64,000 nucleotides of DNA from Elusimicrobiota bacterium (GCA_043827405.1 JBDRPD010000003.1:64001-128000); one strand, 5' to 3'. Shown: positions 28,547-48,748, counted from the first letter of the stretch. The notes: generated by a model from the letters alone, not told the origin. Numbers and translations are program-made.

Positions 28547-29404
28547 CTATTTGCGACGGGGCGCGCAGCGGCGGGCGATTTCGTCCCAGGCGGGTTCGAC
28601 GCCGCGTTCGCGGCTGATGCGGTGGAAAACATCGAGAAAAATCTCCAGCGCGCGGCTGCCATCGGTCTCGATCGAGGCGTTATGCTCGCGCCCCTCGTCA
28701 AGGCAGGCGCGCCATTCCTCGGCGTCCAGTTCGATGTCGCGGCGGAAGCCCGCCTCCTCGCCCTTGGACTCGAAGATCGTGACGATGCTGCCGCAGCGCA
28801 CGCAGGCATCGACATAGCGGTCGACTTCGGGATCGCTGAGGTCCATGATGCGGTGGATGAAGTACGGCTGATTCGGGATGTCGTAGAGATTGAACAGCAG
28901 GCCGATGAGCGCTCCCTCCGGCATAAGGAAGAGGCGCGTCTGCACCTGGTAGCGTACGCCGCGGAAGCGCGAGGGCTGCACCGTCTTCAGCCGCCAGGCG
29001 GGGCGGGTGTCCTCGTAGTCGAGCGTGATCGTCCGCGCCGGCCCCTTGAGCGGTGGGGCGCCGCGCAGCCCCGCGGGGGGCGTCTGTTCGGGGTGTACGG
29101 GGTGCTGCCCGTCGACGAAAATAATCCGTACCGGTTCGCGGCAGAGAGCGCAGCTGACGGCATAGGCGTCGACGATGCAGCCGCCGGCGCCGGCGCCTCC
29201 CGCGTGTCCGGGCGAATCGGGACAGGCGCCTTCCACCGAGCCTCGCCGGCTGATTTCCAGCCGGTGGCCCTTCGCGCAGGTCCAGCTTTCAAGCATCGCC
29301 CGGGCGTCGGCGGGGCCGGCGGACAGCAGGGGATTGCGCGGCGACCAGCCCCGGGGCTTGCCGGCGCCGCCCCAGCCGCTGAACAGCCGTCCCAGCAGGC
29401 TCAT
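28547..29404 (-). CDS. Hypothetical protein with Cys-rich N-region; paralog of the N-domain of 34411-35532
   Basis: SRFRGVRY...LFLMPEGALIG...LYDIPNQPYFIHRIMDLSD aligns with 34411; overlaps the stop of the upstream gene. Confidence 0.72.
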   Translation of the reverse strand: MSLLGRLFSGWGGAGKPRGWSPRNPLLSAGPADARAMLESWTCAKGHRLEISRRGSVEGACPDSPGHAGGAGAGGCIVDAYAVSCALCREPVRIIFVDGQHPVHPEQTPPAGLRGAPPLKGPARTITLDYEDTRPAWRLKTVQPSRFRGVRYQVQTRLFLMPEGALIGLLFNLYDIPNQPYFIHRIMDLSDPEVDRYVDACVRCGSIVTIFESKGEEAGFRRDIELDAEEWRACLDEGREHNASIETDGSRALEIFLDVFHRISRERGVEPAWDEIARRCAPRRK

Positions 29405-30510
29405 GCGGGCTTCTCCTCTTCCCGGGGCAGCTGCAGGCGCAGCCGCACGCGTTCGGCGAATTGTCCCGGGATCGTGAGGACTTGGACATTGAGCCCTTTA
29501 TAGCCCGAGCTTTCCGAGAAGCAAATCAGGCCTTCCTGCTGGCGGGTGCGCTCGGCGATGTCGAGGGCGGCCAGGTGCTTGATCCGCGTCAGCAGCGCCC
29601 GGTACAGCGTACGCGGAAACTCCACGATGGGACGAATCTCGCGGCCGATGCGGTACTGCAGCAGGGCGGAGGCCTCTCCCGCCTCGATATAGACGTCGCG
29701 GATTTGGCGCTGCGCGGCGTCACGGAAGATGCGGTCCAGCAGATGGTTGGTGGGACGCGAGTCCTCGTCGGAATCTTCCGGGGTCCCGGCGAAATTCAAG
29801 TCGCCCAGCGTCCGGTCGCCCAAATGCGGACGGATCTCCGCCAGGATGCGGCGCAGATCCGAATAATCCTCCTGGGTCACCGTTTGCAGCAGGCAGGGCG
29901 CGGCGCCGTCAGGCGGACGGTCGTCGCCGCCCCAGGCCGCGCGCTCGGCCTCGACAACGCGCGCCAGCGCGCGCGCGGTGCGGTCCACCGCGGGGTAAAT
30001 GTCGCGCAGGCGGCGCAGGGTCGCTTTGGCGGGGGCGTCATCGAGAATGGAGGCGAAGCGGTCGCGCGCTTCGGAGGCCCATTGCGGGTAGGGGCCGTTG
30101 AGGAAATTCTCGGCCTGCCGCCGCTCGCGCAGCAAGCTTTCAGCGGCGTCGCTGCGCAGGGCCTTGTCGATGGACTGCAGCATGTCCAGCGCCAGTCCGG
30201 TTCCGGCGCGCAGGGTGGACAGTTCGTCTTCGGCGACATCGGGCACATCCTGCTCGGCCGCCGCTTCCGGCGGCTTCGGCGGTCCCGTCAGGAACTCGAC
30301 ATGGCGTACACCCTGCCCTTTCTGCAGCAGCATCTGTTCCACCGAGTACTGGATCGCCCGCAGGTCTTCCTCGGTGGTGTTGGAAAGCGGTTTATGCAGC
30401 AGCTCGACCACGCCGAAGTCGGCGTCAAAGAAATAGACCTCGATCGCCGCGCCCGAGGCTTCGATATAAGGACGCATGCGTTTGATGATATCGTCGGCGG
30501 TTTCTTTCAT
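29401..30510 (-). CDS. Protein with a C-terminal PilB/GspE N2-like domain and no ATPase domain; degenerate Nfu-like N-terminus
   Basis: IFRDAAQRQIRDVYIE...YRIG...RIKHLAALDIAERTRQQEG...TIPGQFAERVRLRL, then stop; N-terminus IIKRMRPYIEASGAAIE. Confidence 0.7.
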   Translation of the reverse strand: MKETADDIIKRMRPYIEASGAAIEVYFFDADFGVVELLHKPLSNTTEEDLRAIQYSVEQMLLQKGQGVRHVEFLTGPPKPPEAAAEQDVPDVAEDELSTLRAGTGLALDMLQSIDKALRSDAAESLLRERRQAENFLNGPYPQWASEARDRFASILDDAPAKATLRRLRDIYPAVDRTARALARVVEAERAAWGGDDRPPDGAAPCLLQTVTQEDYSDLRRILAEIRPHLGDRTLGDLNFAGTPEDSDEDSRPTNHLLDRIFRDAAQRQIRDVYIEAGEASALLQYRIGREIRPIVEFPRTLYRALLTRIKHLAALDIAERTRQQEGLICFSESSGYKGLNVQVLTIPGQFAERVRLRLQLPREEEKPA

Positions 30511-30650
30511 GACTCGGCGCACAACGGGGGTCCGGAGTACGGAAGGTCAGCTGAATCTAGTGTATGCGGTATTCGCGGCGCGCGCAAGGCCCACCGGGGG
30601 TGACCAATGACGGGTGGCGGGAAATCGCGGGCCGAGCTATGATATCGGGC

Positions 30651-34410: not shown

Positions 34411-35532
34411 ATGAGTGTTGAGATCCATTATTACGACGACGCCCCGGCCTGGAAGATCCTGGCTTCCGACCCCGCCCGCTTCAAAGGCGTCAATTATGAT
34501 TTGGAGATCAAGCTCTTCCGCCTGCCCGAAGGGGGGTTGGTCGGCGTCTGGCTGCGCCTGTACGATGTCCCGGACCAGCCGTTCTTTCTGCACCGGGTGC
34601 TTGATCCATCCGACGCGACGATCGGGGCTTATCTGGACGCGCTCGGCAAGACCGGCAAGCTGATGCTTATCTTTGAAAGCCCGGGCGAGCAGGAAGGATT
34701 TGTCGTCGAGCTGCCGGTCGATTCCCGCGGTCTCCGCGAGGTCCTCGCGGGCGCGCGCTCGCACAACGAGGCGTTGGGCGAGACGGCGCACGGCGAAAAT
34801 GCCGTAGCGGAATTCCTGAAGATCTTCAGCCCCGCGCTGAAGGAGGAGAAGAGCGTGGCGGCGGCCTGGGAGAGGGTGCGTCAAGAGCGGCCCTATGTCC
34901 CGCCGGCGCCGCCGCCGGAGGCTCCGGCGGTAAGCACTTGGGGGGGAATCGTGAAGCTGCTCCTGGGGGCCGTCCTCTGCATCGGGGGGAACTTCTTCTT
35001 CCGATCGCTGACGCCGCTGGCGGACAACGCGGCCCTCGAGAATAAGGTCGTTCGTCCCGGCTATGCGGTCAAGATTTACCTCGGCAAGAGCCTGCGCTCG
35101 ATCGGCGGCCGCTGGAGCGGCGAGGCGCCGGTGTTTACGGTCGAGGAGGGAGAGCAGAGCTTCATCGATTCGGTGAAGACGCATTCCGACAGCTGGGAAG
35201 GGCGGCTGACCGAGATGCATGAGCGCAAAAGCGACCCGCCCGCGTTCAGACCCTATATCGAGGTGCGCCTTAAGGACACCCCGGACCTCTCCGGCAAAAC
35301 TCTCAACGGTACCGCCTCTTTGCGCGGAGTCTATCCGGTATTCTCCGGCGTCGTCTACAAGGAGATGTCGGGCACCTGGAGTAAAAAAGTTTCGTTTACC
35401 GTATTCACTTTTCCGCAGTTCCTTCTCGCGCGAGCGGCGCCGGTGCTGCTGACGGCGGGGATATTCCTGGTGGTGCTGACCTTGCTGGCGGTTTACGGCC
35501 GGCTGAAGGAAGAGTCTAATCCAGACGAATGA
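34411..35532 (+). CDS. Membrane protein with an N-terminal domain paralogous to 28547-29404
   Basis: PARFKGVNY...LFRLPEGGLVG...LYDVPDQPFFLHRVLDPSD; two TM segments flank an extracytoplasmic region. Confidence 0.75.
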   Translation: MSVEIHYYDDAPAWKILASDPARFKGVNYDLEIKLFRLPEGGLVGVWLRLYDVPDQPFFLHRVLDPSDATIGAYLDALGKTGKLMLIFESPGEQEGFVVELPVDSRGLREVLAGARSHNEALGETAHGENAVAEFLKIFSPALKEEKSVAAAWERVRQERPYVPPAPPPEAPAVSTWGGIVKLLLGAVLCIGGNFFFRSLTPLADNAALENKVVRPGYAVKIYLGKSLRSIGGRWSGEAPVFTVEEGEQSFIDSVKTHSDSWEGRLTEMHERKSDPPAFRPYIEVRLKDTPDLSGKTLNGTASLRGVYPVFSGVVYKEMSGTWSKKVSFTVFTFPQFLLARAAPVLLTAGIFLVVLTLLAVYGRLKEESNPDE

Positions 35533-36436
35533 GGGCTTTTTCCCGGTAGGGAGTCGGCGTCGTCGACAGGCTGATCTTCCGGCCGACCAAGGCGGGCGAG
35601 GGGATCTTGCCGATACGGCCGTCCTGCGCGTCCTCGTGATTGGCGATATCCAGGTCGGCTAGAATCTTGAGCCGGATCACCGCGACCTTGGTCACTTCGG
35701 GCGGCACTTCGAAAAAGGGCGTGAATTCCTCCTCGTCTCCGATGCGGTACTGGATCAGACCGCGCCAGGGTCCGGGCACAATCTCAATCTCGCTGACGCC
35801 GCGGACAGCGGCGTCGGCCAGCAGCGCATCGACGAAATCCACGATCGGCATGTCGGCTTGGTCTTCGCTGCCTTCTTCCTCCTCCCGGCACTTGACGTTG
35901 TCGTCCAGCCGTGTCGACAGTTCGGCCTCAAAGCCCTGGATGGCGTTGCAGTCCTCGAAAGTTACCTGGAAGTGAAAGGTCTTTTTCTCGGCGAGATCGG
36001 CGTGCCGCAGCAGCTCCTCGATATCGGGGTCTCCCAGCGCGGGCCTAAGGCTGTCGGCGAGCTGCTTAAGCTCGCGGAGCAGGGGACGGTAGTCCGTGAG
36101 GGAATCCTCGAGCCATACAAAGTCCTCGAGGTCCCAATAGTCGATGGTCTTGAGGGCTACGTCCTTGCCGGCGCAGTACTCGTACTGGCACAGCCGCACC
36201 AGGGCGCGCATGATGCGATCGATGTGGAGATAGGCGGTCTTGAGGTCCGCAAGTTGATCGCTTTCCGCTTTTGCGGCCGCGAGTTTATACCAGTCATCGT
36301 AGGGCCCGGCCAAAAAAAGCTGACCCTGCTCGGCCTCGAAGCCGCCGTTGGTGATGTCCCGGTTGACGTAGGCCATCAGCGTCTTCACGTTGCCGAGAAT
36401 AAATTCCAGGCCGGCCTGCAGCTTGGCGTTGGACAT
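35516..36436 (-). CDS. Second protein ending in a PilB/GspE N2-like domain with no ATPase domain
   Basis: FVDALLADAAVRGVSEIEI.P...YRIG...RLKILADLDIANHEDAQDGRI...LSTTPTPYREKALIRLD-stop. Confidence 0.72.
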   Translation of the reverse strand: MSNAKLQAGLEFILGNVKTLMAYVNRDITNGGFEAEQGQLFLAGPYDDWYKLAAAKAESDQLADLKTAYLHIDRIMRALVRLCQYEYCAGKDVALKTIDYWDLEDFVWLEDSLTDYRPLLRELKQLADSLRPALGDPDIEELLRHADLAEKKTFHFQVTFEDCNAIQGFEAELSTRLDDNVKCREEEEGSEDQADMPIVDFVDALLADAAVRGVSEIEIVPGPWRGLIQYRIGDEEEFTPFFEVPPEVTKVAVIRLKILADLDIANHEDAQDGRIGKIPSPALVGRKISLSTTPTPYREKALIRLD

Positions 36437-36474: not shown

Positions 36475-36559
36475 TTTAGATAAGGTGCCAGGCAGGTTAT
36501 CTAAAGCTAGTACTAACTCAGCCTGATCTCTTCAGATAACCTGCCTGGCACCTTATCTG
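36475..36559. repeat. Inverted doublet of the 23-bp REP-like repeat (REPIN-like)
   Basis: GATAAGGTGCCAGGCAGGTTATC (36479-36501) and its exact reverse complement (36535-36557), separated by an AT-richer spacer. Confidence 0.85.
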
Positions 36560-36582: not shown

Positions 36583-37536
36583 ATGTTGGCCATTCCTGCC
36601 GTCGACGAATCCCTGGAACGCGTACGCGAAGGGTTGGAGCGCCGAGTCGTCACCCTCGGGGGACGCGTCGGCGATCATTTGGCCGAATATATCGGCCGCC
36701 CGGGCAAGATGCTGCGCGCGCGTTATACTTTGCTGCTGGGCGCCGCGCTGGGCGCGGACCAGGGCTTGTGCGAGAAAGTCGCCCGCGCCGTGGAACTGGT
36801 GCACAACGCCTCGCTGCTGCACGATGACTGCATCGACGAGGCCCTGCTGCGCCGCGGAGTGCCGACCCCTAACGCCCGCTTCGGCGACCGCACCGGCATC
36901 CTGCTGGGCGACCTGGCCTTCACCGAGGGGATGGCGGAGGCGGCCGCGGTCTCTCCCCAGGCGGTGGCCGAACTGGTGCGGGCCGTGCGTGAGATGACGG
37001 TGGGCGAGCTTCAGGAGGAGTACCTCTGCGGCAGCCTCAACGTCTCGCTGGAAGGCTACTACGGCGTCGCCGTGCGCAAGACCGCGGCGCTTTTTGACTG
37101 GGCGGGGCGCGCCCTGTCGGGTTGCTCGCCGCTTGAACATGACCGGGAGAACCCGGCCAAGCTCGGCCGCTCGGCCGGCATCCTGCTGCAGATCATCGAC
37201 GACATTCATGACTACACCCTGGATGAGGATACCGCGGGCAAGGATCCCGGCCAGGATTTCGCCAACGGCCGGCTGACTTTACCGGCGATCCTGGCCTTGG
37301 ACGACGAGGAGACGCGTCCGCGCTTTCTGGAACTGTGGCAGAGCCGGGCGCGCGACCCGGAGGCCTTCGACAAGGCGCTCGCGCTGCTGCAGGAACGCGG
37401 CCATCTCGAAGCGGCGCGCGGCATCGCGCGCGAGATCATGGAGGGCATGATCCCCATGGCGGAAGCGCTGCCCGAGCGCGAGGCGGCCGGCCGGATGAAG
37501 GAATTTTTGCAGCTGCTGTTCGCGCGGGAGTTCTGA
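36583..37536 (+). CDS. Trans-polyprenyl diphosphate synthase (long-chain type)
   Basis: GKMLRA, FARM NASLLHDDCIDEALLRRG, KTA, SARM QIIDDIHD, GKDPGQD. Small residues before FARM are typical of long-chain enzymes. Confidence 0.92.
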   Translation: MLAIPAVDESLERVREGLERRVVTLGGRVGDHLAEYIGRPGKMLRARYTLLLGAALGADQGLCEKVARAVELVHNASLLHDDCIDEALLRRGVPTPNARFGDRTGILLGDLAFTEGMAEAAAVSPQAVAELVRAVREMTVGELQEEYLCGSLNVSLEGYYGVAVRKTAALFDWAGRALSGCSPLEHDRENPAKLGRSAGILLQIIDDIHDYTLDEDTAGKDPGQDFANGRLTLPAILALDDEETRPRFLELWQSRARDPEAFDKALALLQERGHLEAARGIAREIMEGMIPMAEALPEREAAGRMKEFLQLLFAREF

Positions 37537-37988
37537 TGGGGTCCCGCTACCAGAAGTTGGTGCGCAATGCCTGGAAGTCGGGCCAGTACAAGGCGGAGAC
37601 CGGCGGCGCCGAAGACGGCGGCGGCGGCGACGCCGCGAACCTGCGGACCCTGCTGCGCTCGAGAATGGAGTGGATCGTGGAGCGTGAGGCGTACGAATTC
37701 AAGGGGGCCGAGCTTCAGCCCAAGGAGAAACCTGCGATGAAATTGGCGCAATATGTGAAGTACCGCGAAGAGAAGTTCGGCGGCGTGCTCTTTGAGACCC
37801 GTTCGGAGAAGGTGTTCACTTTGAGCCCGACCGGTTCGGCGATCGTCAAGGAGATCGTGGCCGGCGGCACCAGCGAGGAGATCGCCTCGCGCCTGAAGGA
37901 TAAGTACCAGGATAAAAACAGCGCGATCGAGAAAGAGGTCGCCGAATTTATCGGCTCGCTGAAGGAAAAAGGCCTGGTCACCGAGTAA
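37536..37988 (+). CDS. PqqD-family RiPP recognition element (MftB/PqqD-like), with a possible 67-aa N-terminal extension
   Basis: MKLAQYVKYREEKFGGVLFETRSEKVFTLSPTGSAIVKEI...EEIASRLKDKY...EVAEFIGSLKEKGLV matches the PqqD pattern. Alternative start at 37737 has an AAGGAG RBS; ATG 37536 is coupled to the upstream stop (TGATG). Confidence 0.85.
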   Translation: MGSRYQKLVRNAWKSGQYKAETGGAEDGGGGDAANLRTLLRSRMEWIVEREAYEFKGAELQPKEKPAMKLAQYVKYREEKFGGVLFETRSEKVFTLSPTGSAIVKEIVAGGTSEEIASRLKDKYQDKNSAIEKEVAEFIGSLKEKGLVTE

Positions 37989-38972
37989 GTGGAAACGGCC
38001 AAGAAAGCCCTGCCCTCGGAGAGCCCGGCCGATACCGGCACGGGGGATCTCGGCGCGCCCCTCTATGTCGCCTGGCAGATAACCAATGAGTGCAACTTGG
38101 CCTGCCTGCACTGCATCGAGGAGAGCGGCCCGGGCAAGGCATTCAAGGACGAGCTGCCGAAAGACAAGGTCTTCGCTGTGCTCAAGGAGCTGCTCGACGC
38201 CGAGGTTCCGTACCTGGCGTTTTCGGGCGGCGAGCCGATGATGCATCCGCACTTTTTCGAGATGGTCGAGTTCGTTACCCGGGGCGGCTCCGAGCTGAAG
38301 GTCGAGACCAATGCGCATCTGCTTGACCGCGACGCCTGCCGGCGTCTGGCCGGCTGCGGCATCCGCGCCGCCCAGGTCAGCATGGACGGCGCTTCCGCCG
38401 AGACCTATCAGCGCCTGCGCGCTCGCGGCAGCTTCGACAAGATGCTGGAGGGCGTGCGCGGCCTCAAGGACGCGGGTGTTCCTATCGAAATCAACTACTC
38501 GCCGACCAAGTTCAACGCCGGAGAGATTTCCCGCGCCGTCGACCTCGCCTACGAGCTCGGGGCCGAGAGCTTCTTTACCGGGCGCACCATGTACACCGGC
38601 AATGCCGTGCGCGCCTGGGACCATATCGCTCCTTCCGCCGAGCAGTATGAACGCTTCTTCGCGGATCTGCGCGCGGCTTGCGACAAGTACGAGGGGAAGC
38701 TGCGCGTTCACTACCACGAGATGGGACTCGTTGAGGAGCTGCGCTACCGCATCAAGCATCCGGCGGCCCTCTTCATTGTTCTGCCCAACGGCTTGGTCAA
38801 GCTTATCAACGCCCTGCCCTTCGTCTGCGGCGACCTGCGCGAGGACTCGGTGCTCGAGGTGTGGCGGAACTTCCAAACCGCCTGGAAAAATCCCCAGGTC
38901 GCGGAGTTCGTCGAGTCTCTGGCGGCCGAACCCAAGCTGACCTCGGAGCTGCATAAATGGGTGCGATTGTAA
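37989..38972 (+). CDS. Radical SAM enzyme 1 (PqqE/MftC-like clade)
   Basis: APLYVAWQITNECNLACLHC, FSGGEP, ETNA, QVSMDG. Confidence 0.92.
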   Translation: METAKKALPSESPADTGTGDLGAPLYVAWQITNECNLACLHCIEESGPGKAFKDELPKDKVFAVLKELLDAEVPYLAFSGGEPMMHPHFFEMVEFVTRGGSELKVETNAHLLDRDACRRLAGCGIRAAQVSMDGASAETYQRLRARGSFDKMLEGVRGLKDAGVPIEINYSPTKFNAGEISRAVDLAYELGAESFFTGRTMYTGNAVRAWDHIAPSAEQYERFFADLRAACDKYEGKLRVHYHEMGLVEELRYRIKHPAALFIVLPNGLVKLINALPFVCGDLREDSVLEVWRNFQTAWKNPQVAEFVESLAAEPKLTSELHKWVRL

Positions 38973-39901
38973 AAGATCCGCCGCATTATCAGCGTCCCGC
39001 AGGCGCCTGGGGCGCTTGGGCCCTGCTGTGGAAGATATTCAGCGTGGTGCGCTACCGGTTCTTTCTCTATGCCGGGCTGCTGCCGTACTTGCTGGGCGCG
39101 GCCTGGGCTTATGTCGTGGGCGGCGCCTTTAACCCCCCGGTGTTCTGGATCGGGTTCTGCGGCATATTCCTCTCCGTTGTCGGGGTCGAGGCCTTCAACG
39201 AGTACTTCGACTCGCGTCTGGGGACCGACCGGGTATTCAACCCGGAGGACGAGGATCCGATTCCCGCCTGGGTGCTGGGGCTCGGCATCGCCGCCTTCGC
39301 CGCGGCGGCGGCGACGGGCATCTATCTCGCCAAGGCCGGCGGCTGGCCGGTCATCCTGTACATGTGCCTGGGCGGCTGCGCCGCGGTGTTTTATGTCGGC
39401 CCGCCGATCCGCTGGGTGTATCGCGGGCTGGGCGAGACCATGATCGCCCTGTCCTATGGGCCGTGGATGGTGCTGGGCAGCCTGCACCTGCAGACGCACG
39501 CTTTCTCCTGGGGAGCGCTCCTGGCGTCCCTGGTTCCCGGGCTGCTGATCATGAGCCTGGCGGTGGTTAACGCGATCCCCGATTTCCATCAGGACCGTTT
39601 GGTCGGCAAACGCAATATCGTCGTGCGCGTCGGCCGCTATAACGGCGTCCTCGTCTATCTCGGCTGCTCGCTTCTGGGGCTGGGTATCCCGGTCTTCGGC
39701 GCGGTGCTCGGCGTCTTCAGCAAGTGGACCTTGCTGACCCTGCTCGCCCTGCCCTTGTGGTGGTCCAGCCGCCGCGCGGCCCTGGCGCACTACGATACGC
39801 CGCGCGATTTCGTGCCGGCGGTGCGCGCGATCGTGCTGTGCTATCTGACGGCAACGAGCTTGTTTATCGTCTCGCTGTTTCTGAGCCTGATTAAATGGTG
39901 A
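38957..39901 (+). CDS. UbiA-superfamily prenyltransferase, MenA-like
   Basis: NEYFDSRLGTD, YVGPPIRWVYRGLGE, NAIPDFHQDRLVGKRN; multiple TM helices. Confidence 0.9.
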   Translation: MGAIVKDPPHYQRPAGAWGAWALLWKIFSVVRYRFFLYAGLLPYLLGAAWAYVVGGAFNPPVFWIGFCGIFLSVVGVEAFNEYFDSRLGTDRVFNPEDEDPIPAWVLGLGIAAFAAAAATGIYLAKAGGWPVILYMCLGGCAAVFYVGPPIRWVYRGLGETMIALSYGPWMVLGSLHLQTHAFSWGALLASLVPGLLIMSLAVVNAIPDFHQDRLVGKRNIVVRVGRYNGVLVYLGCSLLGLGIPVFGAVLGVFSKWTLLTLLALPLWWSSRRAALAHYDTPRDFVPAVRAIVLCYLTATSLFIVSLFLSLIKW

Positions 39902-40881
39902 GCACGGCGCACATCGACAGCCTGCGGGCGCCGCTTATGGTTTCCTGGCAGCTGACCCGCGGCTGCAACCTCGCCTGCCTGCACTGCTGCACCGAATCCG
40001 CGCCGGGTAAGGTCCTGGAGGGCGAGCTGAACCGGGCCGAGGCCCTGCGCTTCGCCGCCCGGCTCATCGAGGCGGATGTCCCCTATGTCATGCTCTGCGG
40101 CGGCGAGCCGTTCACCGTGGAGTGGTTTCTCGATGTCGCCAGCCGGCTCGGGAAAAGCGGCGTGCAGCTGAAGATCGAGACCAATGCCCAGCATCTGGAA
40201 GGGTTCGCGCTCGATGTCCTCGCCCGCCTGCCGGTGCGCTCGATCCAGGTCTCCTTGGACGGCGCGTCGCAGACGGCCTACGGCGCCCAGCGGGCCGGCG
40301 GCGATCTCGAGAAGGCGCTCGACTCCTGCCGGCGCATCCGCGCGGCCGGCCTGCCGCTGGAGATCACCTTCGCTCCCACCGTCTATAATATCCACGAAGG
40401 AGAAGCGGTCCTGCGCCGGGCGGTAGAGCTGGGAGCCTTCCGCTTCAATACCGGCCGCCTGATGCGCATCGGCACCGCCGCCAAGTTCTGGGACAAGCTC
40501 GATCCGCCGGAGCGTCATTGGCATGAGTTCCTGGAAATCCTCGAACAAGCGGAACGGGAGTTTTCAGGAGAGATCGAACTTTGCTATCGTCCCTTTACGA
40601 TCCAGGAAGGTTTGCGTGAAGGCTTGTCGGCGCCGCCGGCGACCCTCCTGGTTCTGCCGCACGGCAAGGTCAAGGTGGCGGCTTCGTTGCCTTATATTTG
40701 TGCGGACGTGCGTCGGCAGTCGATCGCGGAATGCTGGGACGCCTACCGGGCGGCTTGGCGGCGTCCAGAGGTGCATAAGGCGATCGAAGCGGTGCTGAAG
40801 GATCCGGGCTTCCTCGAAGAAGCCAACTGCTGGCGGCCGTTGGACGAAGAAGAGCAGTCCGTACCGATTTCCCGCACCTGA
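39895..40881 (+). CDS. Radical SAM enzyme 2 (paralog)
   Basis: APLMVSWQLTRGCNLACLHCC, LCGGEP, ETNA, QVSLDG. Confidence 0.92.
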   Translation: MVSTAHIDSLRAPLMVSWQLTRGCNLACLHCCTESAPGKVLEGELNRAEALRFAARLIEADVPYVMLCGGEPFTVEWFLDVASRLGKSGVQLKIETNAQHLEGFALDVLARLPVRSIQVSLDGASQTAYGAQRAGGDLEKALDSCRRIRAAGLPLEITFAPTVYNIHEGEAVLRRAVELGAFRFNTGRLMRIGTAAKFWDKLDPPERHWHEFLEILEQAEREFSGEIELCYRPFTIQEGLREGLSAPPATLLVLPHGKVKVAASLPYICADVRRQSIAECWDAYRAAWRRPEVHKAIEAVLKDPGFLEEANCWRPLDEEEQSVPISRT

Positions 40882-40947
40882 GGGTGCGGAACAGATCTGC
40901 CGCCGGTCCATGGGCCGGTAGTGGAACTCCGTGATCATGGAGATCGT

Positions 40948-41058
40948 ATGAACGAGAAGAACATCGCGATTAAGGTTGAGAAGCTCGAGTGGGAGACGCC
41001 CTGTCTTGAGGAAGTATCCCAGCGGGTGATGGCTCAGCCCTACATTCGCTTCACGTGA
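40948..41058 (+). CDS. Putative RiPP precursor peptide, 36 aa: MNEKNIAIKVEKLEWETPCLEEVSQRVMAQPYIRFT
   Basis: Below the ORF-track cutoff. GGAG RBS 5 nt before the ATG; TGA overlaps the GTG start of rSAM3 (GTGA); contains a W-x-x-P-x-L leader-type motif; lies inside an RRE plus rSAM operon. Confidence 0.85.
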   Translation: MNEKNIAIKVEKLEWETPCLEEVSQRVMAQPYIRFT

Positions 41059-42038
41059 GCAATCAGAGGGGGGCATCGGTAGGCGACTACCGCGCCCCCC
41101 TCTTTCTCGCGTGGCAGCTGACCAACCGCTGCCAAGCGCACTGCCTCACCTGCTGCGAGGAGTCCGGGCCGGAGAATGCCTGGAAAGACGAGCTCGCGGA
41201 GGATGAGGCTGTTTCTTTCGCCTGCCGCATCGTCGAATCCGGCATCCAGTACGCGGCTTTCGGCGGCGGCGAACCATTGGCCGTTCCCCACTTCTGGAAG
41301 ATCGCCCGCATTCTGGCCTCGGGCGGCGTCGAGCTCAAGCTCGAGACCAACGGCCTGCCCATTGACGACGAGAAGGCCGACATCCTGCAGGCGCTCAAGG
41401 TCTTGTGCGTGCAGATTTCCGTCGACGGAGCGAGCAAGGAAACTTTCGAGAAGGTGCGTCCCGGCGGCGACTACGACGGCGTCATCGCCGCGATCAAGCG
41501 GCTGGTCGCGCGCGGCCTGCATCCCGAATACGTCTTCGTGCCCAACCGGCTCAATGTCCATGAGGCGGCCGCGGCCTACGATCATGCCGTCGACCTCGGC
41601 TGCCGCACCTTCGTCACCGGGCCGATGATGCGCCTCGGCCGCGCGGCGGCGGGCTGGGACGAACTGTCTTTAAACGATGAGCAGTGGAAGGCCGCGGAGG
41701 AAGCCCTGCGTGAGCGCGAGGCCGCGCACCGGAAAGCGGTCAAGCTTTCGATTTATCCCTGGGACATTCGCACCGAGCTGGAGAAGCGCCTGCTCGAGCC
41801 GCAGGCCCTGCTTCTGGTCGTGCCCAACGGCAAGGTCAAGCTGCTCAACGCCCTGCCCTTCGCCCCCGCCGATGTCCGCCAACACAATATCGAGGAAGCC
41901 TGGAGACTCTACAAGGAAGCCTGGAAGTCCGACGAAGTCGAGCACTTCATCAAGGCCTGCCGCACCCGCCCGGAGCTTCTGCTCCACGCCAACGAAACCT
42001 GGCCCATGGGGCAATGGGCCGCACTTAATCCCGCCTAA
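41055..42038 (+). CDS. Radical SAM enzyme 3 (paralog)
   Basis: APLFLAWQLTNRCQAHCLTCC, FGGGEP, ETNG, QISVDG. Confidence 0.92.
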   Translation: MSNQRGASVGDYRAPLFLAWQLTNRCQAHCLTCCEESGPENAWKDELAEDEAVSFACRIVESGIQYAAFGGGEPLAVPHFWKIARILASGGVELKLETNGLPIDDEKADILQALKVLCVQISVDGASKETFEKVRPGGDYDGVIAAIKRLVARGLHPEYVFVPNRLNVHEAAAAYDHAVDLGCRTFVTGPMMRLGRAAAGWDELSLNDEQWKAAEEALREREAAHRKAVKLSIYPWDIRTELEKRLLEPQALLLVVPNGKVKLLNALPFAPADVRQHNIEEAWRLYKEAWKSDEVEHFIKACRTRPELLLHANETWPMGQWAALNPA

Positions 42039-42050
42039 TCCCCCTCAGTA

Positions 42051-43053
42051 AAGGTGCCAGGCATGTTATCCAAAGGAACTTTTTTTCCTGCGGGTCGTAC
42101 TCGGAGATGTACGTCCTTGGTTTATATGCCTCGAATCCCCAGACCTGATAGTGCGAGAGCCTTTGTGCATGTCGTCGCTCGCGGCAATAACAAGGCGCGA
42201 ATATTCCTTGATGTAATTGATAATTCGGAGTTCGTCAGGTTGCTCTCCTTGGGGATTTCACGTTATGGGGCGGAGCTGCATGCTTATTGCTTGATGCCGA
42301 ACCATATCCATTTACTGCTTCGCGATGCTTTAGGCCGGCTGTCGGATATGATGGAGTGGACTCTGGGGAATTATGCCAGAAAGTTTAATAAGCGCCATGG
42401 AAGAGTCGGACATGTTTTCCAAGGCAGGTACCGTGCAAAATTGATTATCCGGACAACCCACTTCTATGTGGCAGGTCGCTATATCCACATGAACCCTGTC
42501 CGAGGAGGGTTGTGTGAACGACCGGAAGATTACCCCTGGAGCAGTATGAGGGCATATCTTGGATTGGAAGAGGCCGGCTTGTTGTCGAGAGAGTCATTGT
42601 GGGCGCCGTACTCAGATTTGGGTTTGGGGTCTGTATCCGCGATGTATGAGTTTACGACGCGCACTCCGTATGCTTCAGATCATGCCGCGTCAGCAGTGCC
42701 CGATGGAGTGGCCGGTAATGCGCTACGTGCCGCCGTGGTAGCTCGGCCTCCAGGTGAGATGCGGGTGATCGAAGAAGTCGCGAACCTCTTCGACGCAAGT
42801 GCCGGCGCGTTGTTGGAGCGCAGCAGAAGACGCCGCTTGAGGATCGCTCGATCAGTCGCGATGCTGGCAGTTAGGGATAAGATCGGAATGCCGCTCGCCG
42901 ATATCGCACGAATTTTCGGTATGAAATCCCAAAACGGCGTCTCGCTTGCGATTAACCGGCTGCGTAAACGAGCATGTGCCGATCGTTGTCTGGTGAATAG
43001 GCTGACAGATTTAGGTTTGACCACGATTGGATAACCTGCCTGGCACCTTATCC
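42051..43053 (+). mobile_element. RAYT-type locus: transposase gene flanked by inverted REP-like copies
   Basis: AAGGTGCCAGGCATGTTATCC at 42051 and GGATAACCTGCCTGGCACCTTATCC at 43029-43053; the interior is visibly more AT-rich than the flanks. Confidence 0.75.
42126..43034 (+). CDS. REP-associated tyrosine transposase (Y1/HUH, IS200-like) with a DnaA-C-like HTH tail
   Basis: MPRIPR...HVVARGNN...AYCLMPNHIHLL...GHVFQGRY...YIHMNPVRGGL...YPWSS; tail ARSVAMLAVR...LADIARIFG. Confidence 0.88.
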   Translation: MPRIPRPDSARAFVHVVARGNNKARIFLDVIDNSEFVRLLSLGISRYGAELHAYCLMPNHIHLLLRDALGRLSDMMEWTLGNYARKFNKRHGRVGHVFQGRYRAKLIIRTTHFYVAGRYIHMNPVRGGLCERPEDYPWSSMRAYLGLEEAGLLSRESLWAPYSDLGLGSVSAMYEFTTRTPYASDHAASAVPDGVAGNALRAAVVARPPGEMRVIEEVANLFDASAGALLERSRRRRLRIARSVAMLAVRDKIGMPLADIARIFGMKSQNGVSLAINRLRKRACADRCLVNRLTDLGLTTIG

Positions 43054-44449: not shown

Positions 44450-47400
44450 ATGCGGATAGCGAACAGGCTCTTGGCCGCGTTTATCGCTTGCTCTTTAGCG
44501 GCGCAGCCCGCGCTGGCTCAAGTCAAGGTTGTCGGCGTAAAGGCTGTTGCTCCGAATGTCTCCGCAGCCGCCGGTGCCGCAGGGGTTAAGGCGCTCGCAC
44601 CGCTGAGTTTTACCCCGACATCTCTGCAGCTGAACTCCGCGGTTCTGCCCAGCGTCGAAAATCTTCAGCTCCAGCCGTCAAGTCAGCTCAAGCAGCTCTC
44701 GCAGCCCGCTGCCGTCGTCGGGCCCTCCGCATCGGCGGTCAAAGAGACCGCGCCGGCCAAGACCGTTTTTCAGAAGAAGCTTAATGCCATCGGCAAAGCG
44801 GTCGAAGACGCCGGCCGCGGCGCGGAGAATAAATCCGCCGAAGGCGGCAAGCTCGCCGCGGACAAGCAGTTCCATGCTCTGGGTATCAGCGCCGGCGAAG
44901 AGGACTTCGCCCAGCTCTTCGAGGAGAGCCTCTCGGCTTGGGAAAAGGGCGCGCTCAAGCCCGCCGCCGGCGGCAGTACCGCCAAAGAGCTCCTGGCCGA
45001 AGATACGCCGCATTTTACCGGCGAGCAGCTGCAGCATATCCGGCAAGCCAGCCGCGCCATGGAAGCCGCGGTGACCAAGGCGGCCGCGCAGCTTTTGCCG
45101 GGAGCCGGTATCCGGGCGGTGTCGCGCGGTTCGAGCGCGCGCCTCACGCAGGACGACACGCGGGTGGACTACGACATCATGGCGGCGCTGCCCGCCGACT
45201 GGTCCGCCGACAAGGTTCACAGCTTTATGCAGGAGCGCCGCAAGGACTTGAGCGCCGCCTTGGAGAGCGCGATCCGCGAGGAGGCCGCGGCGCTGTTTCC
45301 CGGGCAGGATATCGAGGTGGAGGCCGGCTCTTATGTCCAGCTGTCCGATCCGGTGACGCATTCTCCCGATAAGGGCGTCTATATGCTGCCGGTTAAAGTG
45401 CTCAGCGCCGAGGGGAAGGTCCTGCTCGACGCCGACGTAACCTTTACCAATCTGGCGAAGTACACCAACGACTATCCCGGCTACTTCGCGGCGCAGCTGG
45501 AGCAGGTGGCGCAGCTGGGCGGCCAGGGGGCGGTCGATGAGGTGCTCGGTTCCATCCGCCTGGCCAAGCGGATGTTCAAGGAAGTCGTGGGCGCCTACAA
45601 GGTCTGGCGCGGCGGCCCCAGCGGCGTCGGCGTCGAGCAAATGATCATGCAGTCGGGCCGCGTCGAGAGCGCCGACAAGGGACAGACCGTGCTCGAGCCC
45701 GGCGACTTCGACAAGTTCATGGATCGCATCAACGATATCGCTTTCGACCAGGACGGCCGCTACCGCGGCCTCAAACAGGCGGCGCGATTGTGGAGCGTCT
45801 TCAACCCTTTCCGCGAGCCGGTCAATTTTCTGACCCACCTCAGCGACAAGGCCTGGCGGCGCCTGGCCGACGCGGCGCGCAATTACCGCATGGCCAAGGT
45901 CGCGGGCCGCCCCGTTTCCTTCAAAGAGCTGGGCTACCGCCGGCCGGATCCGCAGGCGGCGTTGGCCGCTTCCAAGCCGGCCGAATTGCCGGTGCGCGAG
46001 ACAACGACTTTAGCCTTCGGCTTCACGTCCGCGCAGGAGAAGATCAATATGCAGCGGGCGGTGCGCGAGGCGGTGCGCGCGCTGCCCGAATCCAAAGAGA
46101 AGATCGCGGCGGCGACGCTGACCGGCGGCCGGGCCAACAAGACCAATTCCTACCAGCTGTCGCTGGTGGTCGAGGGCGGCGCCGGCATGGAGATCACCCA
46201 GCTGCTGCGCGACCAGCTGAGCTTCAGCGACCGCTCAGTCGAATACGAGGGAGAGGCCGCGGTGCGGAAGAACCGCGATCTGCTCGTCTTCTTCCGCGCC
46301 CAGGGCAAGTCGTACCAGCCAAAAACTCTCGACCTGGTGCAGAAGGCCGCCAAGCGGCTGGCCCGGCACTTCAAGAGCAGGGGGAGCGTCACGGTCGGCC
46401 AGCGCCCCGGTCCGGGCGGGGAGTTTATGGCGGTGGTTAAGCTCGAGCCGAACGCCGAGGCGGCGGCGGTCGGCAAAGAGATTCAGGAGTTCTTCCGCAC
46501 GGCGGGCGGCGGCATGCGCCTGACCGGGGTTTCGTTGCCGGCCGGTGTTCCCACCTCCCAGGCCCGGGCTCCCAAGGAAGACGCCGGCGAGGAGAGCGCC
46601 GGCAAGGGGAGCGCCGGCAGAGAGAGCGCCGGCGGGGTCACGCTTGAGATGCTGGAAAAGTTTACCACCCACGGCCCCAAGCCTTCCCGGCGCGGCGACG
46701 CCTATCTTTACGCCCAGGGCGCCAAGGTCCTGCCGGCGGGTTTCGAAGCCGCCTGGGCGAACCGGCCGGAGGCCGGGTCCGGCGGCGGCGACACAATACA
46801 GCGCAGCCTGCTGCTGCGGCGGGGCGGCAAGACTTACGTCCTCGTGCCCACCATCCGGAGCGACGGCGAGCCGGGAATGAAGCCCGCCAATGTCTCTCCC
46901 GAATTGGCCGCGGGAATTATCACCGATACTCTGGTTGAGGCCGAGCTAAGGGACGGCCAAGTCGTTTCGGTTAAGCCGATCGGCTCTTATGCCATGGACA
47001 TGATGATCGGGCGGGCGAGAAAGAATAACGGCCGGTGGATGCTCGATGCCTTGCTGCGCGACGGCAAGAATCCCAAGACGCTTTACGGCCGCATGCCGCT
47101 GGCCGGCGCTGAGAACCTTAAGGAAGGCGAGATCGTGCAGGCCTTCATCAAGCCCGACGGCCGCGGCTACTCCGCCGAGGCCATGCTCGACCTCGGAGCG
47201 GAGCTCACTCCCGAGATCGTCGCCCGCGAGATCGCTCTGCGCCATGGCGCGCGCGGCTACTTCGAGAAAGCCGTGATCGAGCAGGCCGAGAAGGCGGGGG
47301 CGAGCGGGAAAGCGCCGCCCAAGTTCCGGGATTTGCGCGAGTTCGCTTTCGTCACCGTCGACCCCATCGGCGCCGGCGATCTAGACGACGCCTTCTATGT

Positions 47401-48748
47401 CGAGAAGCATGCCGACGGCGGCTATACCTGGTACCTGGCGACCGCCGACGTCGACCAGTTCGTGCCGCCGGGAACGCCGGCCTTCCGCACCGCCGCCCGC
47501 ATCGGCAATACCTTCTACTCCATCGACAAGGACGGGGTGCCGGAATATCCCATGAATCATCCCGTGGTCTCGAAGTATGCGGCCAGCCTGCTGGCCGGCA
47601 AGGACAGCCTGGCGATGATTACCCGCATGCGCTTCGGTCCGAACGGCGAGTTCCTCAAGGACGAGTCCGAAGTCTTCCTCGGCGAGGTGCGGGTGCAGGG
47701 ACGCTACACCTATGAGCAGGTCGTGGATTTATGGCAGGACCGCGCCGGTCACGGTATCGAGCATGTCGAGCAGATCACCCTGGCCCGCGAGCTGGCCTCC
47801 AAGCTCGACGCCAGCGACGCTCAGCGCGGCAAGCTGGCCTTGCGCTTCCAGCAGGTCGCGCACAGCCCGCAGGCGGACGGCACCTGGCGGAGCGCGGTCG
47901 TGGAGGAGGACCCGCACCTAACCGAGTCGCACAAGCTCATCGAGGAGCTCAAGGTCTACGGCAACCGCGCCATCGCCAAACTTCTTGAACGCATCACCGC
48001 GGAATACGGCGTCCCGCATATCAGCCGCGTCCATCCGCAGCAGGAGGAGGCGATCAACCGCAAGCTGCGCAAGAATATCCAGAAGCTTGGACTGCGCTGG
48101 GAGAAGGACGAAAACCTGTGGGACTTCCTGCGCGGCCTGCAGGAGCGCGCGGACCTGACCGACGAGGGGCGCGAGGTCGCGCAGATGCTTGCTTTGATGA
48201 CGCGGCGCACCGCGCAGTACGAGATCAAGGATGCTGACGGCCATGAGGGGCTGGCGCTGGAGGCCGGCATGTACGACCACCCCTCGACGCCCATCCGGCG
48301 CTTCGCCGATATGTATAACCGGGCGATTCTGGAAGCCTACCTTGAGGGCCGCGACCCGCGCGAGCACTACGCCGCGGTGCAGAAGGACCTGACCGATATG
48401 GGCTTTCGCGGGCTGGAAGAGTATATGCTCCACCTCAACGGCCGCGAGGCGGCGTCCAAGCTGATGGACCGCGAGGTCGACGAGTTTATGTCGATCTACG
48501 AGCTGGCCAAGCCCGAGCACCAGGGCAAAACCTACCGCGCCTATGTGAAGATCTTCCGCGACGGCCGCAACCCGCTGGCGGTGCTGCAGCTGCGCGACCT
48601 GCCGGTCAGCATCACGCTGAAAGGCGACGAGGTCGGCGACTGGAAGCTGCTCGACGAGCTGGAGCTGACCATCCACGGCGCCGATCCTGAGCGCGCCAAG
48701 GTCGACGCCTCGGTGCGCAAGCTCGGCCGCCTGCCGGCGCTTAAGTAG
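44450..48748 (+). CDS. Large signal-peptide protein with a Pol-beta-type nucleotidyltransferase domain and a C-terminal RNase II/R (RNB) domain
   Basis: Signal ending PALA-Q; RGSSARLT...VDYDIM; IRLAKRMF...GGPSGVGVEQMI; RNB motifs TVDPIGAGDLDDAF, SHKLIEE, HEGL...STPIRRFAD. Confidence 0.85.
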   Translation: MRIANRLLAAFIACSLAAQPALAQVKVVGVKAVAPNVSAAAGAAGVKALAPLSFTPTSLQLNSAVLPSVENLQLQPSSQLKQLSQPAAVVGPSASAVKETAPAKTVFQKKLNAIGKAVEDAGRGAENKSAEGGKLAADKQFHALGISAGEEDFAQLFEESLSAWEKGALKPAAGGSTAKELLAEDTPHFTGEQLQHIRQASRAMEAAVTKAAAQLLPGAGIRAVSRGSSARLTQDDTRVDYDIMAALPADWSADKVHSFMQERRKDLSAALESAIREEAAALFPGQDIEVEAGSYVQLSDPVTHSPDKGVYMLPVKVLSAEGKVLLDADVTFTNLAKYTNDYPGYFAAQLEQVAQLGGQGAVDEVLGSIRLAKRMFKEVVGAYKVWRGGPSGVGVEQMIMQSGRVESADKGQTVLEPGDFDKFMDRINDIAFDQDGRYRGLKQAARLWSVFNPFREPVNFLTHLSDKAWRRLADAARNYRMAKVAGRPVSFKELGYRRPDPQAALAASKPAELPVRETTTLAFGFTSAQEKINMQRAVREAVRALPESKEKIAAATLTGGRANKTNSYQLSLVVEGGAGMEITQLLRDQLSFSDRSVEYEGEAAVRKNRDLLVFFRAQGKSYQPKTLDLVQKAAKRLARHFKSRGSVTVGQRPGPGGEFMAVVKLEPNAEAAAVGKEIQEFFRTAGGGMRLTGVSLPAGVPTSQARAPKEDAGEESAGKGSAGRESAGGVTLEMLEKFTTHGPKPSRRGDAYLYAQGAKVLPAGFEAAWANRPEAGSGGGDTIQRSLLLRRGGKTYVLVPTIRSDGEPGMKPANVSPELAAGIITDTLVEAELRDGQVVSVKPIGSYAMDMMIGRARKNNGRWMLDALLRDGKNPKTLYGRMPLAGAENLKEGEIVQAFIKPDGRGYSAEAMLDLGAELTPEIVAREIALRHGARGYFEKAVIEQAEKAGASGKAPPKFRDLREFAFVTVDPIGAGDLDDAFYVEKHADGGYTWYLATADVDQFVPPGTPAFRTAARIGNTFYSIDKDGVPEYPMNHPVVSKYAASLLAGKDSLAMITRMRFGPNGEFLKDESEVFLGEVRVQGRYTYEQVVDLWQDRAGHGIEHVEQITLARELASKLDASDAQRGKLALRFQQVAHSPQADGTWRSAVVEEDPHLTESHKLIEELKVYGNRAIAKLLERITAEYGVPHISRVHPQQEEAINRKLRKNIQKLGLRWEKDENLWDFLRGLQERADLTDEGREVAQMLALMTRRTAQYEIKDADGHEGLALEAGMYDHPSTPIRRFADMYNRAILEAYLEGRDPREHYAAVQKDLTDMGFRGLEEYMLHLNGREAASKLMDREVDEFMSIYELAKPEHQGKTYRAYVKIFRDGRNPLAVLQLRDLPVSITLKGDEVGDWKLLDELELTIHGADPERAKVDASVRKLGRLPALK

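Follow-up and report, generated by a model that had tools for sequence, protein, structure and literature searches.

The subject of this analysis is a seven-gene operon in a 64,000-nucleotide stretch of DNA from an Elusimicrobiota bacterium (GCA_043827405.1, JBDRPD010000003.1:64001-128000), and by "the window" we mean this whole stretch. An earlier note had read positions 36583 to 42038 as a candidate pathway for a ribosomally synthesised and post-translationally modified peptide (RiPP), with seven same-strand genes that nearly all abut or overlap, and the open reading frames (ORFs) and junctions are as it described. On the plus strand, the first ORF (36583-37536) encodes a long-chain trans-polyprenyl diphosphate synthase of 317 residues with both DDxxD motifs (PF00348, 150 bits), and the second (37536-37988) a protein of which only residues 84-148 match the PqqD-type RiPP recognition element (RRE; PF05402, 45.5 bits). 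These are followed by a 327-residue enzyme of the radical S-adenosylmethionine (SAM) type (rSAM1, 37989-38972), a MenA-group membrane prenyltransferase of 314 residues (PF01040, 38957-39901), a second radical SAM enzyme of 328 residues (rSAM2, 39895-40881), a putative precursor peptide of 36 residues (40948-41058) and, in a fixed place after the peptide, a third radical SAM enzyme of 327 residues (rSAM3, 41055-42038). PF04055 matches all three radical SAM proteins, and every one of these Pfam matches exceeds its cut-off. We propose that this operon probably makes the cell's membrane-bound, low-potential respiratory quinone, either menaquinone (MK) or a look-alike with about even chances between the two, from the peptide, and that it replaces the men and futalosine pathways.

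The junctions are a TGATG (37534-37538), a TAA followed directly by GTG (37986-37991), an ATGGTGA (39895-39901) and a GTGA (41055-41058), with a 16-nt overlap between the rSAM1 and prenyltransferase ORFs. The sole intergenic gap, of 66 nt, precedes the peptide gene, whose ATG has a GGAG just 5′ of it. A scan for promoters and terminators yielded no usable result. The cassette measures about 4.3 kb, and the guanine + cytosine (GC) content of the operon is 64.6%, against 63.3% for the genome. Pfam holds no family for the 36-residue peptide, and none of the seven proteins exceeds the cut-off of any NCBIfam model (best 25 models per protein), so that none of the genes can be assigned by name to a known pathway.

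The gene set is conserved well beyond its source. Of 5146 candidate proteins, 1324 are related to rSAM1 at E<=1e-30. From a scan of species-representative genomes, we used the best 80 of 234 related stretches, which by their record titles come from Elusimicrobia and from Beta-, Gamma- and Alphaproteobacteria; those nearest to the window are Elusimicrobia. Among 68 long loci (those with at least 3.2 kb 3′ of rSAM1), 67 show the full six-gene order RRE, rSAM1, MenA-like prenyltransferase, rSAM2, peptide, rSAM3, and the prenyltransferase directly follows rSAM1 in all 79 loci with DNA there, which bears out its assignment to the rSAM/RRE cluster. One locus (L059) is a two-rSAM version without rSAM2, in which 257 nt separate the match to the prenyltransferase from that to the peptide (L059:11895-12152). 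In another genome (G236), a 500-residue gene whose start resembles Fic-family proteins is inserted between peptide and rSAM3 (L092:7840-9342). A pattern scan of metagenomes returned at least 120 loci and a second architecture, in which the peptide and RRE are followed by one rSAM and the MenA-like gene, sometimes with a synthase further on; at least six metagenome loci among the matches listed have a single rSAM followed by the prenyltransferase. A genome that is 98% complete (G258) likewise has one rSAM family member only, with the same peptide tail, and the relatives of one single-rSAM enzyme are named Planctomycetota, Phycisphaerales and Sedimentisphaerales. Because the one-rSAM architecture exists, the minimal unit, judged by gene content, is the peptide, the RRE, one rSAM and the prenyltransferase. 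Neither rSAM1 nor the prenyltransferase had a match on plasmids, and the single peptide match on viral contigs, without leader or stop, was dismissed as a chance match. Four soil metatranscriptomes contained only small shares of the Rhodopila globiformis cassette, as short contigs of relatives, and gave no evidence of expression.

Judged by these gene orders, the conserved peptide, the RRE, one to three rSAMs and the MenA-group prenyltransferase travel as a unit. This synteny largely refutes the idea of mere co-regulation, that is, of an ordinary MenA and an unrelated RiPP locus sharing one anaerobiosis operon, which we regard as very improbable. In a 20-row tree, two rows of which have a skewed composition, the eight cassette prenyltransferases from both architectures form one clade (100/100), and they follow an rSAM in both gene orders; moreover, no men genes to feed an ordinary MenA were found in 49 of 50 cassette genomes. 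What speaks for co-regulation is a pair of metagenome loci (L195:8001 and L232:1194) whose peptide genes have no adjoining RRE, rSAM or prenyltransferase. An insertion-sequence-like stretch follows the orphan peptide gene in L195.

The peptide was found at 86 of 96 genome loci, which comprise the best 80 stretches and 16 fetched later. It has a W-x-x-P leader, whose Trp is kept in 85 of the 86 peptides, and a tail V(M/T)AQPYIRFT; AQPYIRFT followed directly by the stop ends every one of them, preceded by VM in 80 and VT in six. Since each of the nine tail codons varies synonymously among these peptides, selection acts on the peptide itself. In the metagenome loci, the tail was built into the search pattern and is not counted as conservation. 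The synteny and the short ORF, whose conservation the earlier note had wished to see examined, are both maintained.

The three radical SAM enzymes are paralogues with 35-37% identity (rSAM2 37% and rSAM3 35% to rSAM1). All keep the CxxxCxxC motif, and none has a SPASM match in Pfam or a SPASM/Twitch cysteine cluster; the part of rSAM1 after position 230 contains one or two Cys in 109 of 109 sequences, and the mean counts in the C-terminal part of the other rSAM groups are 2.4, 1.2 and 1.8. The best NCBIfam scores of rSAM1 are to AhbD (125 bits) and MftC (119 bits), both under cut-off. Its structure model (predicted local distance difference test, pLDDT, 82.7) has SkfB and PqqE as nearest folds, and a search of the ESM Atlas returned generic radical SAM clusters only. 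The RRE, the W-x-x-P leader and the invariant tail together support RiPP-type logic for the cassette, as had been presumed from the window.

The prenyltransferase (24% identity to Escherichia coli MenA) keeps both acidic motifs and scores 64 bits against TIGR00751 (cut-off 102) and 100 bits against NF004751 (cut-off 264). Placed on a tree, as the earlier note had advised, the cassette clade falls inside the MenA group (99/96), with UbiA, CyoE and BchG outside. The sole sequence match in the PDB is UBIAD1 (8DJK, E 6.7e-5). Membership of the MenA group and the UBIAD1 match would equally suit an enzyme that makes a respiratory quinone from a head group not derived from the peptide, which might be scavenged 1,4-dihydroxy-2-naphthoate (DHNA) or menadiol, or a metabolite built by the rSAMs with the peptide as a reusable carrier or activator. 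We consider this unlikely, although a single rSAM is enough in some lineages, no conserved protease lies nearby, and all of the evidence for a quinone link fits it equally well. Against it, the tail is unchanged up to the stop codon at all 86 loci, as in consumed precursors such as PqqA and MftA, and the prenyltransferase gene is wedged among the rSAM genes in 67 of the 68 long loci.

The case for a respiratory quinone begins with the genome that carries the window, which is 97.97% complete. It encodes NqrA, B, C and F over NCBIfam cut-offs and an operon like that of alternative complex III (ACIII), with a multihaem cytochrome, a molybdopterin/Fe-S subunit, an NrfD subunit and a joined haem-copper oxidase, in addition to Rnf-like, nitrate-reductase-like and multihaem genes read from the sequence. 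Na+-translocating NADH:quinone oxidoreductase (NQR) and ACIII-type complexes need a pool quinone. For the futalosine route, neither MqnA/D nor MqnC was found in this genome. For the Men route, there was no MenD, MenB and MenF had no match over cut-off, and MenC and MenH had none by tblastn; MenG/UbiE was not found at 1e-15, UbiE giving only weak partial matches, and tblastn found no match for UbiA, B, C, J, T or V. The genome has three UbiA-family genes, which encode a haem O synthase-like protein in the oxidase operon, an HAD-UbiA fusion and the cassette enzyme, and the last is the only one of quinone type. The earlier note had held that its idea would suffer if this gene proved to be the genome's only menA. 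No separate menA, men or mqn gene was found in the genome, yet this supports the idea instead, since the searches there turned up no route to DHNA.

Two candidates for further quinone genes were rejected. UbiD and UbiX of this genome both lie in a mevalonate operon, and a 716-residue U32 protein considered as UbiU falls short of the cut-off for UbiU, in a genome where neither UbiV nor UbiT was found. The mevalonate operon (L282, G000:C54:96700-104300) is of the archaeal-type modified kind, in a bacterium; it encodes an FMN-dependent isopentenyl diphosphate isomerase (IDI)-like protein, HMG-CoA reductase, a GHMP kinase, UbiX, a UbiD-family decarboxylase, large and small subunits of AcnX and an amino-acid-kinase-family protein.

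The distribution of the cassette across genomes points in the same direction. We took 50 cassette genomes from 50 of the 80 loci, picked for long contigs and named isolates. PF02621 (MqnA/D) was found in none of these 50 nor in the 19 cassette genomes of the phylum sample, MqnC exceeds its cut-off in none of five cassette genomes, and MenD does so in one of the 50 (G015). Across 251 genomes sampled from the phylum, three rSAMs occur in 18 and a single rSAM in one, MqnA and MqnD in 15, and MenD over cut-off in two, with no overlap. Of the 32 genomes bearing a haem-copper oxidase or nitric oxide reductase, 15 have the cassette, 12 the futalosine route, none both and five neither; such an oxidase is present in 15 of the 19 cassette genomes versus 17 of the 232 others. 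The cassette is found in 17 of 19 other genomes of the window's order, and by gene content it fills the slot taken by futalosine in sister families of the phylum. The five genomes with neither route (G124, G240, G176, G264 and G298) are 90-99% complete, and may represent incomplete assemblies or yet another quinone strategy. In a betaproteobacterial family (151 genomes), the cassette occurs in 27, at an rSAM threshold of 1e-100 that would miss one-rSAM versions, MenD in four and RquA in 12. The fumarate reductase subunit FrdA is encoded by 17 of the 27 cassette genomes versus 38 of the 124 others (p=0.003), and lies within about 7.5 kb of the cassette in 13 genomes.

Cultured organisms offer a direct comparison with measured quinones. 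Three cultured phototrophs have the cassette or its first rSAM, namely R. globiformis, Rhodothalassium salexigens and Rhodovibrio salinarum. The strain R. globiformis DSM 161 carries the cassette (L066), and its membranes are reported to contain ubiquinone (UQ), MK and rhodoquinone (RQ) by high-performance liquid chromatography (HPLC), with MK modelled at the QA site in a 2.24 A map (PMC9640540). This MK is reported from a pure phototrophic culture (PMC9640540), which counts against a head group of non-peptide origin. Searches of the R. globiformis draft genome found no MenD, MqnA/D or MenF, and of its five UbiA-family genes only that of the cassette is MenA-like. A MenB-like match proved to be BadI in a bad/ali cluster (464 versus 318 bits), and an MqnC-like match CofGH. 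Chobert et al. conclude that Pseudomonadota make MK by the Men pathway only (PMC11707229); with no men genes found, the MK of R. globiformis is left unexplained.

R. salexigens DSM 2132 carries the cassette, and has no MenD or MqnA/D and no MenB or MenF over cut-off. It probably contains MK-10, for which the literature search found no source; PMC11762602, 10.1101/587956 and PMC6295460 contributed nothing on the point. A gene for an orphan MenA-like enzyme in this species (L123:271-2798) is flanked by those for a tetrahaem cytochrome of NapC type and a COQ10-like protein. It has no men genes in its vicinity, and its product could act on the same head group as the cassette enzyme. R. salinarum encodes an rSAM1 orthologue with 81% identity to the Rhodothalassium protein. 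In a comparative table it is listed with Q-10 and MK-10, and the six other tabulated strains are given without MK (PMC11316597; see also PMC7179689).

The genomic neighbours of the cassette are diverse. Within 5 kb at the 80 loci, which are related so that the counts are not independent, we found the quinol:fumarate reductase subunits FrdA (15) and FrdB (10), DmsE/MtrA (11), MtrC (10), MtrB (9), NapC/NirT (7), a COQ10/RatA-type protein (10) and NiFe hydrogenase (5). Two one-rSAM loci, L226 (NqrB, C and D over cut-off) and L230, directly follow nqr genes, and in L217 a thiosulfate-reductase-like operon lies 5′ of the peptide. In L218 (5558-8549), the one-rSAM cassette has 5′ of it genes for a U32 protein resembling UbiU/UbiV, a UbiT-like SCP2 protein and a multihaem cytochrome of NapC type, which make a possible oxygen-independent hydroxylation partner, seen at this locus only. 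The common feature of the neighbours is the use of pool quinone. The neighbour families examined at the 80 loci include no recurring gene for a protease, an exporter or immunity, and the absence of a protease and an exporter that had been remarked on in the window thus extends to the wider set.

These neighbours bear on another possibility, in which the peptide gives rise to a prenylated cofactor or lipopeptide outside the quinone pool, such as a signal or a membrane cofactor dedicated to a single family of oxidoreductases. That the rSAMs are nearest to MftC, AhbD, SkfB and PqqE would agree with this, as would the patchiness of the cassette in Proteobacteria, which already have ubiquinone (27 of 151 genomes in the one family), and the lack of exclusion against MenD or RquA in that family. 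However, no single client enzyme is conserved, the neighbours being unrelated save for their use of pool quinone, no exporter or immunity gene recurs, and NQR and ACIII of the window's own genome would be left with no identifiable quinone. We judge such a product to be rather improbable. The earlier note had suggested an analogue of PQQ or mycofactocin or a new lipopeptide class; the evidence favours a respiratory quinone over a lipopeptide.

The preferred reading, a respiratory quinone made from the peptide, can be set out as a series of steps. The RRE would hold the W-x-x-P leader while the rSAMs convert the Y-I-R-F-T tail, with its aromatic residues, into a head group that is small, bicyclic and aromatic. 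Release of this head might fall to a host peptidase or come about through radical scission, and the MenA-like enzyme would then attach a polyprenyl chain to it, with the chain coming from the adjoining synthase in the window's lineage, possibly tethered via the RRE extension described below, and from the host ubiquinone synthase in Proteobacteria; the prenylated head would serve as pool quinone. By analogy, we would favour an oxidative decarboxylation of the terminal Thr and then C-C ring closure onto the Phe, because AhbD and MftC, the closest profiles, are oxidative decarboxylases; this particular chemistry remains doubtful. Two menaquinone routes have been described, both from chorismate. 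In its strongest form, our proposal is a third menaquinone route (or a new quinone that has been scored as MK), in which the rSAMs cut the ring from a ribosomal peptide and the MenA-group enzyme adds the tail, and whose product would be the only respiratory quinone throughout an order of probable Elusimicrobiota and would occupy the QA site in R. globiformis. We see the chances of this stronger version as evenly balanced.

Several points weigh against the production of a quinone from the peptide. The chemistry of the route is deduced from genes, and it meets problems with where the oxygens of the quinone and its methyl group would come from (no MenG was found in the window's own genome), with the lack of auxiliary clusters where one rSAM acts, and with the cost of one peptide per quinone. 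Neither a protease nor a hydroxylase or methyltransferase is encoded in the cassette, and where the same tail occurs with one rSAM, few enzymes are left to build a naphthoquinone. Enzymes of oxidative C-C coupling, PqqE and MftC among them, use auxiliary clusters, and these are missing from the rSAMs.

The distribution also contains evidence that weakens the proposal. One of the 50 cassette genomes (G015) has a men operon. This operon (L141, G015:C11:785000-800000) is complete, and because its GC content is 44-48%, compared with 63-66% at the cassette, and it adjoins a nucleoside triphosphate/diphosphate (NTP/NDP) exchange transporter, it appears to be Chlamydiae-like foreign DNA or the mark of a chimeric bin. 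The contrast within the phylum amounts to roughly one order against other families, and its p of 3e-5 overstates the case; the five oxidase-bearing genomes with neither route have one UbiA-family gene each. In the betaproteobacterial family, the exclusion is not significant (MenD overlap 0/4, p=1; RquA 1/12, p=0.69), 34 of the 55 FrdA genomes have no cassette, MenD or RquA, and a lack of men genes is the baseline in Alpha- and Betaproteobacteria. Among the cultured carriers, the R. globiformis genome is a draft, and the evidence for its MK in the accessible text consists of HPLC and map density, with UQ and RQ present too; the R. salinarum link is the rSAM1 orthologue, the rest of the cassette and the men genes lying outside the search; and R. 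salexigens has a second MenA-like gene outside the cassette (L123).

The first gene of the operon requires separate treatment. The note had suggested that the operon supplies its own isoprenoid chain, which would hold here, where the synthase adjoins the cassette, but not generally: the two adjoin at only six of 77 loci with enough upstream DNA (first set), five titled Elusimicrobia and one "bacterium". The synthase is thus a lineage-specific add-on and not part of the core of the cassette. Its best NCBIfam matches are solanesyl, heptaprenyl and octaprenyl synthases, all below cut-off. Small residues (A, S) directly precede its first DDxxD motif, which is the usual sign of long products; of the two PF00348 genes in the genome, the cassette synthase is the long-chain one and the other is IspA-like.

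The RRE ORF is likewise more complex than first described. It does encode a PqqD-type RRE, but as a domain of 83 residues with its own start (37737-37988), preceded in frame by a 67-residue extension (37536-37736) with no Pfam family. The RRE is stand-alone in Proteobacteria. The extension is present in all 18 loci with a synthase directly upstream (15 identified by pattern and three read from tblastn match length) and absent in two relatives without a synthase. A purine-rich, ribosome-binding-like stretch precedes the internal ATG (37737), which in the window has a Shine-Dalgarno sequence, in all 18 synthase-bearing loci, and this arrangement would allow a plain 83-residue RRE product too. 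A model of the synthase in complex with the extension scored 0.66 (runs 0.68, 0.34 and 0.66), compared with 0.01 for the best of three controls; 116 of 157 solved complexes attained the mark applied, as did 2 of 215 mismatched pairs, counts that are only approximate for the alignments used here. At least 86% of contacts agree between runs, and the pLDDT of the partner is at least 53. The extension is therefore predicted to bind the polyprenyl synthase, and if this is true, chain supply would be tethered to the peptide chaperone, or the extension would be a small synthase subunit.

Other features of the window lie around the operon. A 29-nt inverted repeat (97% complementary) occurs 5′ of it (36478-36558), and a third copy is found 3′ of it at the start of a gene with Y1_Tnp and DnaA_C domains (42051-43034); a 13-mer from the repeat has 22 copies in the genome. 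The repeat and the Y1_Tnp gene resemble a repetitive extragenic palindromic (REP) element with its REP-associated tyrosine transposase (RAYT). Two proteins (35516-36436 and 29401-30522) seem to end in an isolated GspE/PilB ATPase N-terminal domain without the ATPase domain, as suggested by a weak PF00437 match for the former and by reading of the sequence for the latter. Further downstream (44450-48748), a protein of 1432 residues has an RNB (RNase II/R) domain at residues 960-1299, behind a long N-terminal part that starts like a signal peptide and matches no Pfam family.

Overall, the first reading of the window was largely right and is partly supported, and its statement that no described pathway has this gene set agrees with our full-text literature searches, in which no description was found and from whose coverage subscription journals are mostly absent, and with the sub-threshold NCBIfam scores. 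The cassette is real, widely conserved and apparently undescribed. If it does make a quinone from the peptide, RiPP chemistry would be joined to core bioenergetics, menaquinone would be explained in purple bacteria in which no men genes were found, and genome-based calls on respiration in uncultured soil, groundwater and sediment bacteria would be corrected.

Among known systems, the cassette belongs by its gene content to the broad class of RRE-dependent radical SAM RiPPs, with a precursor bearing an RRE-binding leader, an RRE and an rSAM in one operon. With mycofactocin (MftA, MftB and MftC), it shares a short precursor with an invariant C-terminal tail, a stand-alone PqqD-type RRE and the notion of a peptide-derived redox carrier, and TIGR03962 (MftC) is the first or second best model for all three rSAMs. 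However, these score only 86-119 bits against a cut-off of 265 and lack SPASM, and the RRE scores 18 bits against 33 for TIGR03967. MftA ends in a conserved Val-Tyr tail, whereas the cassette peptide ends in RFT and has no NCBIfam match, and in place of the peptidase, oxidase and glycosyltransferase, none of which is a conserved neighbour, the cassette has a polyprenyl transferase. The PQQ system (PqqA, PqqD and PqqE) is similar in its W-x-x-P leader, PqqD-type RRE, PqqE-like fold and core Tyr. Unlike PQQ enzymes, the cassette rSAMs score 49-81 bits against a TIGR02109 cut-off of 381 and have no SPASM. E-x-x-x-Y is the core motif of the PQQ precursor; in the cassette tail, Met or Thr stands four before Tyr. 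PqqB and PqqC are not among the recurring neighbours (PqqC had no match in five of five genomes, nor in any control genome), and the cassette product is predicted to be lipid-anchored.

On the quinone side, the cassette shares with the Men pathway a MenA-group prenyltransferase, a long-chain synthase, an association with low-potential respiratory enzymes and MK-containing species, but MenF, D, C, H, B and G were not found in the window's own genome and the cassette prenyltransferases form a separate clade. The futalosine pathway (MqnA-E) is alike in using radical SAM chemistry for an alternative MK route and in holding the same slot in sister families, but the cassette rSAMs are not MqnC or MqnE, and futalosine involves neither peptide nor RRE. 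UBIAD1, the animal MK-4 synthase, is the only solved structure that the cassette prenyltransferase matches, and distantly so; it prenylates free menadiol, an already methylated head, and a similar use of a methylated head would fit the absence of MenG here. The cassette thus looks as though the final step of menaquinone synthesis had been added to a mycofactocin or PQQ pathway, while belonging to none of these pathways, and it would be categorically new if the link from peptide to quinone holds.

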